This document shows, one piece after another, positions 15,153 to 49,654 of a stretch of 58,314 nucleotides of DNA. The DNA comes from Candidatus Micrarchaeota archaeon (lineage in GTDB: Archaea > Micrarchaeota > Micrarchaeia > Anstonellales > Bilamarchaeaceae), in the NCBI GenBank assembly GCA_040754495.1, contig JBFMCO010000014.1, positions 1 to 58,314 of the forward strand, given 5' to 3'. Position numbers and translations under genes: made by a program. The stretch's first letter is position 1. Each line of letters starts with the position of its first letter. Under the pieces are notes generated by a model. The model was given only the letters and a program-made list of their open reading frames with translations. It was not told the origin of the DNA and did not search any database.

Positions 15153-16874
15153 ATGATGAGCAAAGAATCGTTTGAAGTGGACCAGATAGCGCTCGGCGAA
15201 TGCGGGGGGGAGGTTGCCGGGATACCCATCAGGTACCTCACCCGCCACGGCATAATAGCGGGAAGCACAGGGACCGGGAAGAGCCGGGCCATGCAGGTGC
15301 TCGCGGAGCAGCTTGCGGAGGCCGGCGCGCACGTCTTCGTGTCTGATGTGAAGGGCGACGCCTCCGGGTTCTGCGTCCCGGCCTTCGAGCAGGCGGAAGT
15401 GCCGGCCGAGGCCGAGAAGAAGTGGGGCGAGCGCAACCGCCTCGCCCCGTTCGAGCCCTCATCATTCGGCGCGAACTACTGGAGCGTCTCGGACCGGTTC
15501 GCGAGGATGCGCTTCTCAATAAGCAAGGCCGGGAGCGTGCTTTTCTCCAGGCTGCTGTCCCTGAATCCGACGCAGGAGAGCCACCTCGCGATAGCGTTCT
15601 CCTACGCAAAGAAGCAGGGCATCGGCCTCGACACCCCGGACCAGCTCCTTGACGTCCTTGACGAGCTTGTCAAGACCAACCAGCGCGGCATCAGTCCCTC
15701 CAGCGTGTCGGTCATACAGCGGAAAATCATAGCCCTCCAGGAGTCGGGCCTCGGCCGGATGTTCGGAAGCCCGGACGTGCGCCTTGAGGATTTGGGCGGG
15801 CTGAACGTCCTCAACCTCAGCGACGCCCGCAACGACATGGCCGTCACGATGGCCCCTGCGTTCGTGCTGAAAAAGCTGTTCGACCTGCTTCCGGAAGTGG
15901 GCGAAGTGGAGAAGCCGAAGTTCGCGGTATTCTTCGACGAGGCGCACTACCTTTTCAAGGACTCGAACAAGTCGCTCCGGGACCTGATGGCGACCATCCT
16001 GAAGCAGATACGCTCGAAGGGCGTCGCGGTCTTCTTCGTGACGCAGGATGTCGGCGACATCCCGGACGAGATTCTCAGCCAGCTTTCGACCAAGATAATA
16101 TTCTCGCAGAAGGCCATGACCGAGAAGGGGAACGCGCGCCTGCGCGCCCTCGTGAAGTCATTCCCGAACCCAAAACCCGGCGCAAGGCTTGGCTCTTCAG
16201 CGGAGCCAAACCTTGCGGAAACCGGAAACCGGCTGCTGGAAACCATCAAGACCATGCCTCCGGGCGTCGCCCTGCTCTCCACGCTGGACGAGTCCGGCAA
16301 CCAGACCGAGCCGGCGCAAGTGCGCGTTTTCGCTCCTGCGACGACCATGGCGGTCGTTCCGGACGAAGCGCTGAGGAAGGCGACGGATGCGGAGCTGATT
16401 AAGAAATACGCGGCCGTGCAGAAGCCGAAGGCGCAGGAGAGGCCGAAAGCCCCGGAGCCAGGCCTTCAGGCAGAAACTCCGCGGCCGAAGGCCGAGGCAA
16501 AAAAACCAGCAAAATCCGAAACCCAAAAAACAGGACCCAAAACCCCAAAACCCGCACCTGCCGCCCCGCCTCCGGTCCGCGAAGAGGTCCGGATAAAGGA
16601 AGTTGTCGTAGAGAAAAAAGTCGTCAAAAAGAGCGGGCCGCCCATCCTTGATGGCGTGCTGGGTGGCCTCCTCAAGCTCCTGCGGTTCTTCCTGAAGGCC
16701 GGAGGCATGGTCTTCGACGCGTTCATGGCGAAGCCTCTCAGGGCGCTCTTCAAGTATCTCACGAAGAAGCCCATCCGGCTGCTCTACTTCGTCCTGCTGC
16801 TCATACTCCTTTACGCCCTGTACGTGAACTGGGCGAAGCTCCAGGCGCTGCTGGAAGCGATAAAACTCACCTAG
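15153..16874 (+). CDS. DUF853/HerA-like P-loop ATPase with low-complexity linker and C-terminal TM
   Basis: RHG.IAGSTGTGKS, FFDEAHYLF, IRSKGV..FFVTQ...DIP. Confidence 0.85.
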   Translation: MMSKESFEVDQIALGECGGEVAGIPIRYLTRHGIIAGSTGTGKSRAMQVLAEQLAEAGAHVFVSDVKGDASGFCVPAFEQAEVPAEAEKKWGERNRLAPFEPSSFGANYWSVSDRFARMRFSISKAGSVLFSRLLSLNPTQESHLAIAFSYAKKQGIGLDTPDQLLDVLDELVKTNQRGISPSSVSVIQRKIIALQESGLGRMFGSPDVRLEDLGGLNVLNLSDARNDMAVTMAPAFVLKKLFDLLPEVGEVEKPKFAVFFDEAHYLFKDSNKSLRDLMATILKQIRSKGVAVFFVTQDVGDIPDEILSQLSTKIIFSQKAMTEKGNARLRALVKSFPNPKPGARLGSSAEPNLAETGNRLLETIKTMPPGVALLSTLDESGNQTEPAQVRVFAPATTMAVVPDEALRKATDAELIKKYAAVQKPKAQERPKAPEPGLQAETPRPKAEAKKPAKSETQKTGPKTPKPAPAAPPPVREEVRIKEVVVEKKVVKKSGPPILDGVLGGLLKLLRFFLKAGGMVFDAFMAKPLRALFKYLTKKPIRLLYFVLLLILLYALYVNWAKLQALLEAIKLT

Positions 16875-25164: not shown

Positions 25165-25407
25165 GGGCTCGTAGCTCAGTCCGCCTTTTGGGAAAAGGCG
25201 GCCCAAAACCGACTGATGAAAAACGCTTCGCGTTTTTGGCCGAATCCAATCAAAAGGCGGGAGCAGCTTGGATAGAGCGGCAGCCTTCTATGCCCCCGGC
25301 ATCCGGTTTCCGGTTTCCAGTCCCGCGTTTCGGGTACTGGTTGCCGGCTGCAGGATGCCGGATGCGCAGGCAGCTGTAGGTCGGGGGTTCAAATCCCCCC
25401 GGGCCCG
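25165..25407 (+). tRNA. tRNA-Arg(TCT) with introns at 15/16 (25180-25266) and 37/38 (25291-25371)
   Basis: GGGCTCG/CGGGCCC, GCTC/GAGC, A20, GCAGC-CTTCTAA-GCTGT, GGGGG-TTCAAAT-CCCCC; near-perfect BHB for the D-loop intron. Confidence 0.95.
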
Positions 25408-25694
25408 TATCCGCTTCCGGTTTCCCGTTTCCCGTCTTGAGTTTGACTCAGGCGGATACGGGACGTCCATGTTCCGCCGAACATGGTGCGCCTCCCTACT
25501 GTTCCTTGAACAATGGGGCACCGCGACGCCGTGCGTCGCGATTGTGTTCGGGGCGCCGGACAAGTGCGCGGAAGTGAAATCATCAGATTTCACAACGGGC
25601 CCGATTTTGTTTCACGTCCAGCGAATCAAATATAAACCCCTTTCGCTATAGATTGGATGTTAATTCTGGAGAATCCGAGCCGCCAGGTGGGAGT

Positions 25695-43920: not shown

Positions 43921-44095
43921 AAAAGAACTTATAGAGAAACATTTGGTACGAAATCCTTATAAAATGGGATTCGGACGGCCTGCGCGAGGGCCGCTTGGCT
44001 GTGAGAAGCCGCCACGTGAACTCCTGGTCTGGTTGTCAATCCGAAGGATTGGCAAACGATTAGTTTTTTGGCCCCTTTTTTTCTAAAAAAGGGGA

Positions 44096-44254
44096 CGGGC
44101 CAGGTGAGATTTGAACTCACGACCTTCACCTTCCGCCTTTTAGGAAAAGGCGGCCAAAACGGCCTCTCCATTTCCCGAAATTAGGACGGTGCCGCTCAAG
44201 ACTCAGGGAAGCAGAACTGCTTGCCCCAATCTATCCAAGCTGAGCTACAGGCCC
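44096..44254 (-). tRNA. tRNA-Arg(CCT) with introns at 22/23 (44197-44230) and 37/38 (44132-44181)
   Basis: GGGCCTG/CTGGCCC, GCTC/GAGC, A20, GTGAG-TTCAAAT-CTCAC; good BHB at 22/23; U6-U67, G27-A43 and G32 are atypical. Confidence 0.75.
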
Positions 44255-44308
44255 ATGGCCAATCATTGCTGGCATGAATTTAAAAACCGTTTTCAGCATC
44301 TTCCAGCC

Positions 44309-46036: not shown

Positions 46037-46278
46037 GGGCCTGTAGCTCAGCTCGGTTAGAGCGACGGTCTTATACGACACGTTCTAGCACAGTTGTCTA
46101 TACGACTGAGTGCCTATGAAAGCCGTAGGTCCGGAGTTGCGCTTTTTGGGAAAAAGCGCCCAAAAACGTGTTGATGAAAAACGTTTCGCGTTTTTGGGAA
46201 TTTCCATCTGAAAGGCGCAACGGAATTCAAAAGAGTCGAAGGTCTCGACCTGCGATTCTGCGGCTCTCCGCAGGCCCA
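46037..46278 (+). tRNA. tRNA-Ile(TAT) with three introns: 37/38 (46076-46120), 53/54 (46137-46225), 59/60 (46232-46264)
   Basis: GGGCCTG/CAGGCCC-A73, ACGGT-CTTATAA-GCCGT, CGGAG-TTCAAAT-CTCCG after splicing; BHB-like motifs at each junction. Confidence 0.85.
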
Positions 46279-46457
46279 ATTTTATTTTCCTGGTGTTCAG
46301 TGTCGGGTGTTCGGTGTCCAGTATTTACGTCTGATTTTACTGCTTTCTTACTGCTGCTTTTCCAGCCGATTTTCTTTGAAATAAGATTTGATGGCTTCTG
46401 GGCCTCGGAAAAACTTATATCTTCGGCATTCATACGTATCATTCCTCCATTTTGCAT
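46264..46457 (-). CDS. Integrase N-terminal fragment (intN)
   Basis: GGAGGT RBS, ATG 46457; 58 codons then att read as KIGPAE, same frame as in intC. Confidence 0.65.
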
Positions 46458-46603
46458 TTTTCTTTACCTCCAGCTCGCGCTAGCCCTTCCGAATCGGAAA
46501 AAGCGCGGGCGGAGCCGACCGAACGGTTTCCAGCAGCCGGTGTCCGGTTGCCAGTAACGTTCAGCCTTCAATGTTTCCCATCTCAAATTCTCCTTTTTTC
46601 ATC

Positions 46604-46965
46604 TCATTTTGCCTCACCTCTCGCCTCGACCGATGCCTTGAGCTTGCACAGCATCGACCGGATTCGTACGAGCGTTGTCATGTAGTTCAGATGTTCCCGC
46701 TGGGGAATTATCTGCAAGGAGTGGCACAGGTCCAGCCAGAATTCGGCTTCGTTCGCCTCTCCGACGCAGCAGACTAGTTTTTGCTTCTGGGCTGGGATGG
46801 AACCATCGCTCCCATCTCCGCCAGGTTGGCACAGATGGAGGAAACCGAAGCCAGAAGCTGCTCCTTGGCCCGGCTGCTCATCCTCTTGTCCTCCATGAAC
46901 TGGAAGACGTCCTTCGACAGCCGAAACGCCTCCTCATAAACCCTTAACTTCTTGAAGTCCTGCAT
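46604..46965 (-). pseudogene. Four-helix-bundle (IVS/S23-like) gene with a -1 frameshift near 46806
   Basis: MQDFKKLRVYEEA...QL..S..SI.ANLAE; other frame continues DGSIPAQKQKLVCCVGEANEAEFWLDLC...KLKASVEARGEAK*. Confidence 0.8.
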
Positions 46966-47344
46966 GATTTCACCTTTTTTATGCCTAATAAATTCCTTGT
47001 CGGGGTGCATTTCCGCGGAACCCTTACCCCGGCTTCTCTATGCGTCCGGGATTTATCTCGCGAGCGTCATTGCGGCGCCCGCAATGTTTCTTCCACGGGC
47101 GGGAAGCAATGACGCGAGGCAAAAATCAGTTTCCGTATGCGTGAGATGAGGGCAACCGTGCGGAGTTTTTATTCATTTAGCAGTTTGCGTGAAGGCAGAG
47201 AGTTGGGATTAGCAAACTGCGACCTGAGCGAGGGCGAAAACGCACATTAAATCTTTCGGTGCGCCAGCACCGAACCCGAAGGGCTTGAGGTTTAAGTGCT
47301 TTTCTGCCCGAGCGAAGGGAAATGATTAAAACGGAGCACAAAGG

Positions 47345-47542
47345 TCATTCCTTTCTACGGATGGGAGCACGCCTTACTTCTATCCCATCCCCGTCTTTAT
47401 CTCTAAAAGCCGTTATTACGACCTGATCTTTTTCGGTCCAACCAAGCGTTCTGGCCTCTTTGGTGATGAAGATAGCTAATCCTGTAGCCCATGGAATTAT
47501 CTTTTTGACATTCATGGCGAGGGTTTCTCTTTTTTCCTCCAT
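47345..47542 (-). CDS. Small AbrB/MazE-like DNA-binding protein
   Basis: KIIPW..GLAIFI.KE...LGW...D.V.I pattern. Confidence 0.55.
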   Translation of the reverse strand: MEEKRETLAMNVKKIIPWATGLAIFITKEARTLGWTEKDQVVITAFRDKDGDGIEVRRAPIRRKE

Positions 47543-47611
47543 GTCGCTTAAGTTTTTAAACTGAGTATTAATAGTAAATACTTAGTTTCATAAGTAGTGA
47601 AGGGGAATACG

Positions 47612-48475
47612 ATGTCTGACATAAAATTCGTCTTAACCGGTCTGGTTGTTGTCTGCTTGCTTCTTTTTGTCGGATGCACTTCGAAAGAGTCTGGCCCGCA
47701 GTTTGCAAAACCTGCTACGGATTCACAACCAACTGCTCCGACAAGTGCTCAGCCACAAGCTATAAACTGCGGGAATGGAGCCGTGGATTCGGGTGAAACG
47801 TGCTCTTCTTGCCCGACGGACGTACAATGTTCTGCTGGAATGGTTTGCTGCTCTGGGACATGTGCCAGACCTGTCTGTAATTCATCCGCTGACTGCGACG
47901 ACAACGACAAATCAACAGTGGATACCTGCCAAAATGCGGATAGTTGCGATGCAACGTGCTCACACAGTCAAATTACCTCATGCACGGATTCTGACGGAGT
48001 GTGCCCAGATGGCTGCAATGTTTTCAATGATAACGATTGCAAAGCACTGAGCCCAGGCACAGCGGCGGATTCGGGCAATTTGCAAATTAGCGTCTCCAAT
48101 CCGTATGTTCAAGTGTGCACGAGCGATTATTCAGAGGATAAGGACACGTATCTCGTTTTCGAAGTAAACGTGGAGAACAGAGGGACCAAAAAGGAGTATA
48201 TTTCCTCTATGGAGTTTTCAGCAGTTGATCCGAACCGAAAGCAATTCGATGGCTCAATACTATCGTACCCAACAGTATTCGGAGGGAACTGTGCAGACGC
48301 TAAAAACGACGCATTTAGCGGAGGGAATTTGCTCCCGGGTTCAAAGGATAATGGCAAGATATGGATTGAGTTGAGCAATACGGGCTCTTATTCCAAAGGC
48401 AAGTGGTATATCGTATACAAGCAAACATTCAGCCTGAAGGACTTGTACACAGTATACGAAACTCAGCTCAACTGA
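47612..48475 (+). CDS. Cys-rich surface lipoprotein with C-terminal DUF4352-like Ig domain
   Basis: Lipobox FVGC; CGNG...GETC, CDDND...VDTC, GVCP.GC...DNDC repeats; V.V.N.G...F..VD...KQF. Confidence 0.75.
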   Translation: MSDIKFVLTGLVVVCLLLFVGCTSKESGPQFAKPATDSQPTAPTSAQPQAINCGNGAVDSGETCSSCPTDVQCSAGMVCCSGTCARPVCNSSADCDDNDKSTVDTCQNADSCDATCSHSQITSCTDSDGVCPDGCNVFNDNDCKALSPGTAADSGNLQISVSNPYVQVCTSDYSEDKDTYLVFEVNVENRGTKKEYISSMEFSAVDPNRKQFDGSILSYPTVFGGNCADAKNDAFSGGNLLPGSKDNGKIWIELSNTGSYSKGKWYIVYKQTFSLKDLYTVYETQLN

Positions 48476-48497
48476 TTTTTCTTTTCATTTTCATTTC

Positions 48498-49442
48498 TTA
48501 CATTTTTTCCTGCATCCCCCTCACTTTTTCCAGAAGCCGCTCATCCTGCGCCCTCTCAATGCCCCCATAAAGCTCCTCCTTCTTCGTATGGATGTAAATC
48601 ATCGTTGTCTGGATGTTGGTATGCCGGGCAAACCTGCCAGCCAGCATGACGTTGCCGCCGTTCTTCCGGCAGAAGTTCGTGATGGCATAGTGCCTCAGGC
48701 TATGCGGACTGAGGCGAAACAGGGGTTTCGGATGAGCGCCTGCGCTGTAACCATAAATCTCAGCCAGCCCTGCCTTCTCTGCGTATCCGTGGAAAACGTT
48801 TCTCGCTGTTTCACGGGTTAAGTGGGATTCTATTTTCCGGGTCCTCCATCCATAAGCGAACGAAAAGAAAAGGAAGCCTTCTGCTTTGGCGATTTCCATC
48901 TCATAGGCAGCGATATACTGCAAGGTGGCATCGAACAGCTTTTCTGGAATCAGAAGATAGTCCGTTTTCCCGCTCTTTTCCGAGAAGATGCGCAGCTCGT
49001 GGGTTTTCAGGTTCAGGTCCTTGATGTTCATCCGTATGGCTTCCCCAATCCTGAGGCCGAGGATTGCCTGGAAGCTGAAAAGCAGGTGCGCTTTTGGATC
49101 GTCTATAACGCTGAAAAACCGCTCCAATTCTTCATCCGTAAATCCTTTGTTCATTGAGCCGTACTTCGGTCTTTTTGAGCGAAGGAAGCGCCTTTTCCTC
49201 GCTTCTGACAGGATAGTGATTGCCTTTACCAGATTCCACTTTGTGAGATGACGCCCGTAGTGTTCCAGTTCCTGCCTGATTTCCGGCCAATTCCGGGTTA
49301 ACTCCTTGGAGATTTCCCTTGCTGTTTTAACTAATTGTGCTTCGCCACAATCCAGAAACTGGGCACCCGACACGGAACACTGACGGGAAACCGGACACTG
49401 GCCACTGGAAACCGCTTCACCCCTCTCCGCAGGCCCAATTTT
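48498..49442 (-). CDS. Tyrosine recombinase/integrase C-terminal fragment (intC)
   Basis: GLRIGE (R), K, HSLRH (HxxR), ARHTN (H), TTMIY (Y). Confidence 0.92.
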   Translation of the reverse strand, partial: KIGPAERGEAVSSGQCPVSRQCSVSGAQFLDCGEAQLVKTAREISKELTRNWPEIRQELEHYGRHLTKWNLVKAITILSEARKRRFLRSKRPKYGSMNKGFTDEELERFFSVIDDPKAHLLFSFQAILGLRIGEAIRMNIKDLNLKTHELRIFSEKSGKTDYLLIPEKLFDATLQYIAAYEMEIAKAEGFLFFSFAYGWRTRKIESHLTRETARNVFHGYAEKAGLAEIYGYSAGAHPKPLFRLSPHSLRHYAITNFCRKNGGNVMLAGRFARHTNIQTTMIYIHTKKEELYGGIERAQDERLLEKVRGMQEKM

Positions 49443-49568
49443 CCTTCTTTTACCAGGTGCCAGCCCAAGCAAAGGCCCAGGGAAATTGGGAATAAAGTGA
49501 AATCGCCGCACGATTTCACGACAGGCCCAATTTTCCTTCTTTTACCAGGTGCCAGCCCAAGCAAAGGC
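49430..49568 (+). repeat. 47-bp direct repeat (49430-49476, 49522-49568), 92-bp period, starting with tRNA-Ile 3' end
   Basis: CAGGCCCAATTTTCCTTCTTTTACCAGGTGCCAGCCCAAGCAAAGGC twice. Confidence 0.9.
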
Positions 49569-49654
49569 TCAGGGAACTCTGGCCCCGGCAATACCTGCCC
49601 AACCACCCGTTGATTCACACCAAGGCTTAAATTCCCAGCCTCCACGTTCTATCC

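Follow-up and report, generated by a model that had tools for sequence, protein, structure and literature searches.

Escherichia coli has tRNA-linked repeats (TLRs; Egan and Landy 1978, Rudd 1999), which, in the account of Stenum et al. 2021 (PMC8144298), lie immediately 3' of a tRNA or rRNA gene, share its operon and number one to five per locus. Each TLR ends in 18-19 bp of the 3' end of the preceding gene; the function of TLRs is largely unknown, three of them are small RNAs that arise by read-through, and the authors suggested that the end copy is a processing signal (PMC8144298). In E. coli, repeats that copy a tRNA end were already known in 1978, and most of them have no explanation so far.

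A partial tRNA copy downstream of a tRNA gene is also the classic footprint of an integrase, and the SSV-type and pNOB8-type integrases of archaea are associated with partial-tRNA attachment (att) repeats of integrated elements. Plant mitochondrial t-elements and mascRNA-type minihelices are tRNA-like processing signals, and REP/BIME sequences, MITEs and the Rickettsia palindromic elements are small palindromic repeats.

Here, we analysed a window of 58,314 nucleotides, which is contig C14 of a Micrarchaeota genome of 1.63 Mb (72 contigs, 59.5% GC, 80% complete), together with relatives that were collected with the PolD DP1 protein as the query and that are all Micrarchaeota MAGs. Two sites in the window, one behind tRNA-Arg and one behind tRNA-Ile, are both members of a family of units of about 92 nt. 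Like TLRs, these units lie directly 3' of tRNA genes in the same orientation and in arrays of 1.6 to 4 copies. Their end copy tracks the tRNA, such that a tRNA ending in GTCCA is followed by a GTCCA copy and the discriminator is matched. The end copy is 18-19 bp long in E. coli, whereas it is 7-8 nt long here and 10-12 nt long at tRNA-Trp. In addition, the units differ from TLRs by a conserved hairpin and by an inverted segment whose pairing partners are the tRNA end and the trailer, and they occur in an archaeal phylum with other RNA-processing machinery; the likeness is one of build, and homology is not expected. On balance of these comparisons, the units appear to resemble the E. coli TLRs more than the scars of integrated elements.

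The hairpin sites behind tRNA-Arg and tRNA-Ile

The preliminary description of the window, made from its letters, had reported the same hairpin followed by a copy of the tRNA end behind two different tRNAs. The positions of both hairpins and both octamers proved exact on re-reading of the letters. At the Arg site, GTGAAATC-ATCA-GATTTCAC at 25574-25593 is followed by AA, CGGGCCCG (25596-25603) and ATTTT, and at the Ile site, GTGAAATC-GCCGCAC-GATTTCAC at 49497-49519 is followed by GA, CAGGCCCA (49522-49529) and ATTTT. The gapped palindrome is found twice in the window compared to 0.00 expected (100 shuffles), and an exact search of the whole 1.63 Mb returned the window pair and no third copy. 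Default ARAGORN and Rfam at the gathering score found zero tRNAs in the window because the genes carry several introns each, and standard tRNA finders overlook the tRNA genes of these genomes. The features of the tRNA-Arg locus are as follows.

25165-25407, plus strand: tRNA-Arg(TCT) gene (partial Rfam match, ARAGORN with introns, direct reading)
about 25180-25265, plus strand: D-loop intron of tRNA-Arg(TCT)
about 25290-25372, plus strand: 83-nt intron of tRNA-Arg(TCT) 3' of the anticodon
25400-25407, plus strand: segment A of the Arg unit, the 3'-terminal octamer of the gene, CGGGCCCG, 196 nt upstream of the copy
25404-25414, plus strand: 5' strand of helix P1, made of the final 3 nt of the acceptor strand, the discriminator and 7 trailer nt
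25452-25462, plus strand: segment A', the 3' strand of P1 (letters; centroid fold)
25466-25570, plus strand: insertion of about 105 nt with three or four hairpins, between A' and the GAA-hairpin
25574-25593, plus strand: conserved hairpin (HP) with an 8-bp stem and an ATCA loop (letters, shuffles, fold)
25596-25608, plus strand: segment A'', the copy of the acceptor 3' strand and discriminator, then a T-run

The octamer behind the hairpin equals the last 8 nt of tRNA-Arg, and the fit of each end copy to its own tRNA that had been claimed for the two sites is supported. Read from the letters, 25404-25414 is an 11-nt exact complement of 25452-25462. The description of the Arg interval as a chain of hairpins agrees with its fold (-108 kcal/mol, z = -6.8), and the interval has this appearance because of the insertion of about 105 nt at 25466-25570. 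This insertion is a member of a hairpin-module family that also fills tRNA introns of the genus; in the alignment of insertion-free units, A' runs straight into GAA. Homologues of the insertion with compensatory changes in their stems (L170, L178, L164 and L183) are present at the same point of units in other genomes as well as within a tRNA-Ile intron.

A look at relatives, which had been proposed as a check, showed that the orthologous tRNA-Arg/UPF0147/PolD locus contains a unit in some of them, while elsewhere no unit is present and the promoter lies directly 3' of the tRNA. The unit-less tRNA-Arg flanks (L006, L007, L010, L016 and L040) contain an unrelated GC-rich hairpin within 10-30 nt; a hairpin 3' of the tRNA may be a general trait of these genomes.

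The tRNA-Ile locus combines a unit with an integrated element. Its features are listed with matches to R1, a covariance model that was built from 21 units since the sequence and length of the hairpin vary.

46037-46278, plus strand: tRNA-Ile(TAT) gene with introns 3' of the anticodon and in the T-loop (reading; ARAGORN with introns; orthologues)
46264-46283, plus strand: attL core within tRNA-Ile (direct repeat)
46284-49422, no strand: integrated element of low GC, about 3.1-3.2 kb (context, outside the unit)
48498 to about 49400, minus strand: tyrosine integrase of the integrated element
49423-49442, plus strand: attR core, a 20-nt copy of the tRNA-Ile 3' end plus 5 nt (direct repeat)
49430-49537, plus strand: complete Ile unit (best R1 match in its own genome, 98.4 bits, E 4.9e-22; fold)
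49430-49437, plus strand: segment A of the Ile unit
49434-49444, plus strand: 5' strand of P1
49480-49490, plus strand: segment A'
49497-49519, plus strand: hairpin
49522-49529, plus strand: segment A'', then a T-run
49522-49576, plus strand: partial second Ile unit, reaching from A'' through the loop to where A' starts (R1 match 49522-49596, E 7.8e-9)

The repeat of the tRNA-Ile 3' end claimed for this site is present, but tRNA-Ile itself lies 3.2 kb upstream, and the adjacent sequence at 49423-49442 is the attR core, the last part of which doubles as segment A of the unit. The open frames across attL and attR share one frame, and no hairpin of this kind is found at the 3.2-kb element's own ends. 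We regard the element as a distinct insertion that entered later, between tRNA-Ile and the unit. The Ile hairpin is bracketed by a 55-nt direct repeat with 98% identity (49430-49484 and 49522-49576), which gives an array of 1.6 units whose period is 92 nt. Close relatives have different types of hairpin and loop at their orthologous tRNA-Ile locus, and some of these types match units behind tRNA-Val in other genomes, which suggests that units are exchanged between loci. A tRNA-Ile flank in another genome (L186, G399) was considered as an empty site and rejected, as it resembles the loop of Ile-type units and may be a truncated unit.

The genome of the window encodes six tyrosine integrases (on C58, C60, C44, C13, C14 and C46), and at least four of the six genes have a tRNA gene predicted by ARAGORN no more than 1 kb away, which suggests that tRNA genes are heavily used as integration sites. 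In a related genome (L190, G227:C82, 7541-9998), tRNA-Val(CAC) is separated from an 18-nt copy of its end by a 2.4-kb insert. The insert contains one 770-aa ORF with a Cys-rich end and no integrase, and directly 3' of it lies a unit with a hairpin-module insertion nearly equal to that of the Arg unit in the window.

Architecture and distribution of the units

The build of the unit was derived from an alignment of 21 insertion-free units. Each starts with A (the acceptor 3' strand and the discriminator), a trailer of 6-8 nt, a T-rich loop and A'; three variable bases, RAA, the hairpin (usually with a GTG/CAC foot), RA, A'' and a T-run follow. In 21 of the 21 units, A and A'' are 88-94 nt apart, and the unit is about 92 nt long. 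Stems of the hairpin vary in both sequence and length (GTGAAC, GTGACC, GTGGCG, TTGGCC, GGGAAC), such that the fold alone is kept, while GAA, the GTG/CAC foot and RA-C are constant across tRNAs and genomes in the aligned units. The T-rich loop was rejected as a mark of the unit, since a GGTTTCC-type sequence also occurs 3' of hairpin-less tRNA genes (on C9 and C28). No Rfam family or ribozyme was found for the units, and a hammerhead or other ribozyme was set aside as it had no Rfam match; a K-turn, a T-arm mimic for the hairpin loop and an ORB element of a replication origin were also considered and rejected.

Segment A' is exactly complementary to the trailer together with the 4 nt that end the tRNA. 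The perfect Watson-Crick runs in P1 have a mean length of 9.6 nt compared to 4.8 nt for shuffled A', and 13 of 20 units have a run of at least 10 nt. The trailers pair better with their own A' than with the A' of other units (permutation p<1e-4); at least eight distinct versions of the trailer exist, each with a fitting A', and in the tandem units of L178, and likewise of L182, differences in the trailer are compensated in A'. In A'', the consensus is C, three variable bases and CCCR. Conservation is limited to the final four bases, for which the YGGG end of A' is a possible pairing partner, and the first four decay; the Y of A' and the R of A'' covary, as UA in 11 units and CG in 7. The end copy is thus neither a faithful acceptor strand nor a uniform scar. 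Counting G-U against A-C on the sense strand of the stems showed no excess of G-U, on few events, and the pairs are almost purely Watson-Crick. The lack of a G-U bias means that the fold may matter in RNA or in single-stranded DNA, and that perfect complements could also be obtained by a templating process at the DNA level.

A second type of unit is present at five loci (L166, which is G389:C7, and L165, L167, L005 and L011). It is a full tRNA-like minihelix whose acceptor has 7 bp and whose T-stem has 4-5 bp; a CACATG...CATGGAA hairpin takes the place of the T-loop, and the end consists of the last 12 nt of the tRNA. These units stand in tandem with the hairpin units.

Of 30 genomes sampled from the genus, nine contain the exact palindrome, with one to three copies each, and the reversed pattern, used as a control, had no matches. 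All of these hairpins lie behind a tRNA end or a copy of it: they start 66-70 nt past the start of the acceptor 3' strand or its copy, and their orientation is that of the tRNA. No instance of the motif apart from a tRNA-end duplication was therefore found within the genus, and the layout shared by the Arg and Ile sites is, as proposed, a recurrent module tied to tRNA 3' ends. Outside the genus, the sampled genomes contained the palindrome in one case, in another family and with unrelated flanks. There (G359; L173 and L179), a 19-nt palindrome with an ATG loop is present twice, in inverted copies of a different repeat; we rejected both as units because their flanks are unrelated and they have no tRNA-end copy, and they may be chance convergence or an unrelated element. 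In the whole contig collection, the gapped palindrome gave just chance matches in unrelated bacteria.

With R1, units were detected in 30 of 40 genomes of the genus, at 0-27 units per genome and with more than 220 matches for the genus in total. Within the order, they are confined to the window's own family f1 (22 of 73 genomes), and 77 sampled genomes of 11 other families had none. The genome of the window has at least nine units, which R1 placed on C14, C13, C50, C51, C56, C70 and C22, each behind a tRNA gene or behind a tRNA-end copy, and a separate hairpin scan added a unit behind tRNA-Trp on C26. The host tRNAs are Arg(TCT), Arg(CCT), Ile, Val, Lys, Ala and Trp.

The units often stand in tandem, with four units at L166 (two of them of the second type), three near-identical units at L183 and two each at L164, L178, L182 and L185. 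Up to 27 units are present in one genome of 1.4 Mb. In the FttA tree, units occur in nearly all clades, and the counts of sister genomes differ (4 vs 0 and 15 vs 0), which indicates a fast turnover. One pair of sisters, G323 with a unit at tRNA-Lys and G325 with no R1 match and a different hairpin, was rejected as a filled and empty pair since the flanking DNA is only about 70% identical.

Origin and possible role of the units

Our preferred reading, which we hold tentatively, is that the units may well be lineage-specific tRNA-linked repeats, an independent and more elaborate variant of the E. coli kind that would form structured extensions of tRNA transcription units. The units would be transcribed by read-through as part of the tRNA precursor, in which the last 4 nt of the tRNA and the 6-8 nt of trailer would pair with the downstream A' in the long-range helix P1. 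In the same precursor, A', the hairpin and the end copy would make one long hairpin, with an outer 4 bp that mimic the acceptor stem at its top, and the trailer would thereby be folded away or cut off, with the shape of P1 and of the hairpin held by selection. Local multiplication would occur by tandem duplication or by unequal crossing-over between the direct tRNA-end copies, of which the 1.6-copy Ile array in the window may be a fresh example, and units would move between tRNA genes with similar 3' ends by recombination. What is observed directly is the build of the units, their confinement to tRNA 3' flanks, the covariation of trailer and A', the tandem arrays and the fast turnover; their transcription, their processing and any benefit to the host are inferred, and any function would be dispensable, since most tRNA genes and many genomes of the genus have no units. 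If this reading is correct, an independent and more regular version of such repeats in DPANN archaea would point to a general process at tRNA 3' flanks, and the P1 helix, the hairpin and the end copy offer structures that can be tested.

The putative precursor fold has a parallel in tRNA-like processing signals, since the outer helix of the unit hairpin imitates an acceptor stem and carries the 3' strand of the tRNA, and the second-type units (L165-L167, L005 and L011) are full mimics. The units in the window, however, mimic 3-4 bp of the acceptor only and have no T-loop, and a role as a processing signal is putative. With small palindromic repeats and with the tRNA-intron modules of Micrarchaeota, the units share that they are short, structured, multi-copy and patchy among relatives, and the Arg unit itself hosts an insertion of the intron-module family. 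In contrast to the small palindromic repeats, they are bound to tRNA 3' flanks, have one orientation and are partly tailored to the local tRNA.

The preliminary description had regarded the two sites as non-autonomous minielements that target tRNA 3' ends, or as scars, with the inverted repeat as the binding site of a recombinase. On this view, the units would be tiny integrative elements with the tRNA end as core, and a tyrosine integrase, or some other recombinase with the hairpin as its recognition site, would move them in trans. We consider this unlikely, though a live rival. What stood of the minielement claim is a recurrent module tied to tRNA ends; the core that it shares with the tRNA falls far below att sites of 18-20 nt. 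Direct tRNA-end copies do bound each unit, the arrays resemble serial insertions, and tRNA genes are much used by integrases, with several of the six integrase genes in this genome beside a tRNA gene. The true cores, though, are 20 nt (the Ile element in the window) and 18 nt (the tRNA-Val insert in G227), and both pairs enclose cargo, whereas the core of the units is 8 nt with 4 nt conserved and only about 84 nt of conserved non-coding architecture lies between the repeats. The swapping of hairpin and loop types among close relatives at the tRNA-Ile locus speaks for mobility; what is conserved, however, is the fold of the hairpin and neither its sequence nor its length, and a double-stranded circle of 92 bp would be physically unlikely.

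Integrase genes adjoin units at C14 and C13 and in G315, which would fit mobilisation in trans, but this adjacency can be explained by elements that insert into tRNA genes already carrying units. A tblastn search with the window's integrase against the other unit loci gave no match. The family of this integrase is present in 13 of 40 genomes of the genus and, at E<=1e-10, absent from the unit-rich genomes G389 (27 units), G281 (18), G164 (18) and G212 (15). The units are independent of the window's integrase family, the one family that this survey covered. Together with the varying stems, its absence from unit-rich genomes speaks against the inverted repeat as a recombinase binding site. A Y1 (HUH) transposase (PF01797) is absent from the 80% complete genome of the window, in which the units differ from IS200/IS605-type or REP/RAYT elements, and the unit hairpin is absent from the ends of the four TnpB-like genes of this genome. 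Non-autonomous mobility by a route other than an integrase scar or a hairpin site is possible.

Alternatively, the units could be a functionless by-product of replication or repair, in which template switching driven by the hairpin, together with slippage, makes the A' and A'' copies. We consider this improbable, though likewise a live rival: the complements are perfectly Watson-Crick without a G-U bias, partial tandem copies exist, and sister genomes show rapid gain and loss. A by-product of this kind would not be expected to hold the period steady at 88-94 nt or to leave GAA, the GTG/CAC foot and RA-C invariant over tRNAs and genomes. In the L018/L167 pair, P1 is still perfect beside an unpaired half of A'' that has decayed, and the compensatory changes in the tandem units of L178 and L182 keep the match between trailer and A'.

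Another reading starts from the position of A', which spans the junction of CCCR and trailer exactly, so that the 5' and 3' ends of a monomer would abut on it. The unit could then be a spliceable or circularising RNA, cut after each tRNA-end copy with its ends splinted on A', which would yield an intron-like alternative 3' end or a circle. Units would in that case be genes for, or DNA copies of, circular or end-clamped RNAs of about 92 nt that are released from the tRNA precursor by the host's tRNA-processing enzymes only, and the tandem DNA arrays, which look like multimers, would be their genomic counterpart. Many RNAs are circularised in archaea. We nevertheless consider this very unlikely: inspection of the aligned units gave no bulge-helix-bulge at their borders and showed instead a 4-bp helix flanked by a symmetric 3x3 loop and a continuous helix; the distal copies are unfit to replace the acceptor strand at several loci (for example CTGGCCAG in L018); and no enzyme is known that would cut after A''.

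That the units are decayed attR scars of full elements that lost their interior is, in our estimate, highly improbable. The units share with att repeats the direct repetition of the tRNA 3' end downstream of the tRNA gene, partial tRNA copies in this position are typical traces of integrases, and real elements exist at tRNA-Ile in the window and at tRNA-Val (C13 and G227). The units differ from att repeats in that they have no cargo and do not depend on the window's integrase family, and in their shorter repeat, fixed boundary, constant length and covarying A'. The copy boundary is constant at tRNA position 66, the ends of the 3.2-kb element show no such hairpin, and about 20 of some 26 inspected units lie directly 3' of the tRNA without intervening foreign DNA. 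An 8-nt repeat of which 4 nt are kept, a fixed build of 88-94 nt and a covarying inverted segment are not expected of scars. Both this reading, the scar part of the preliminary description, and that of an integrase binding site are poorly supported. Units can be taken for att sites when mobile elements are mapped, and they lie beside real ones.

Finally, both window loci have the palindrome, a perfect 8-bp inverted repeat, some 100-135 nt ahead of a gene in the same orientation. The idea that it serves the genes 3' of it, namely UPF0147 with PolD DP1 at one locus and the asparagine synthase gene at the other, as an operator or promoter can practically be dismissed, being largely refuted by gene orientation, as the gene 3' of the unit is convergent in other genomes; moreover, orthologous UPF0147 promoters (TTTAAAT box) exist without the hairpin, the window promoter lies downstream of the hairpin and beyond the unit, and a stem of variable length is ill-suited to a dimeric DNA-binding site.

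Neighbouring repeats in the window

Besides the units, the window contains repeats associated with tRNA introns. A 78-nt sequence in which a CCCAAAAC tail stands between two hairpins occurs in the tRNA-Arg D-loop intron (25182-25259) and in the T-loop intron of tRNA-Ile (46140-46217), with 77% identity between the two. A third, partial copy (44132-44159) lies in an intron of a tRNA on the minus strand. Since the host introns differ, the 78-nt sequence appears to be one intron module at different positions of different tRNAs. The minus-strand gene (about 44094-44255) is a third tRNA gene with multiple introns, missed by ARAGORN and Rfam, and is followed by an intron-type hairpin with a CCAAAAAAC tail and by no unit. 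Heptamer arrays of the CCGGTTTCC type occur in seven dispersed copies between 3066 and 46550, and also at 16217, 17880, 38141 and 49386; their settings include the tRNA-Arg intron, tRNA trailers and the side of the att core of the integrated element.
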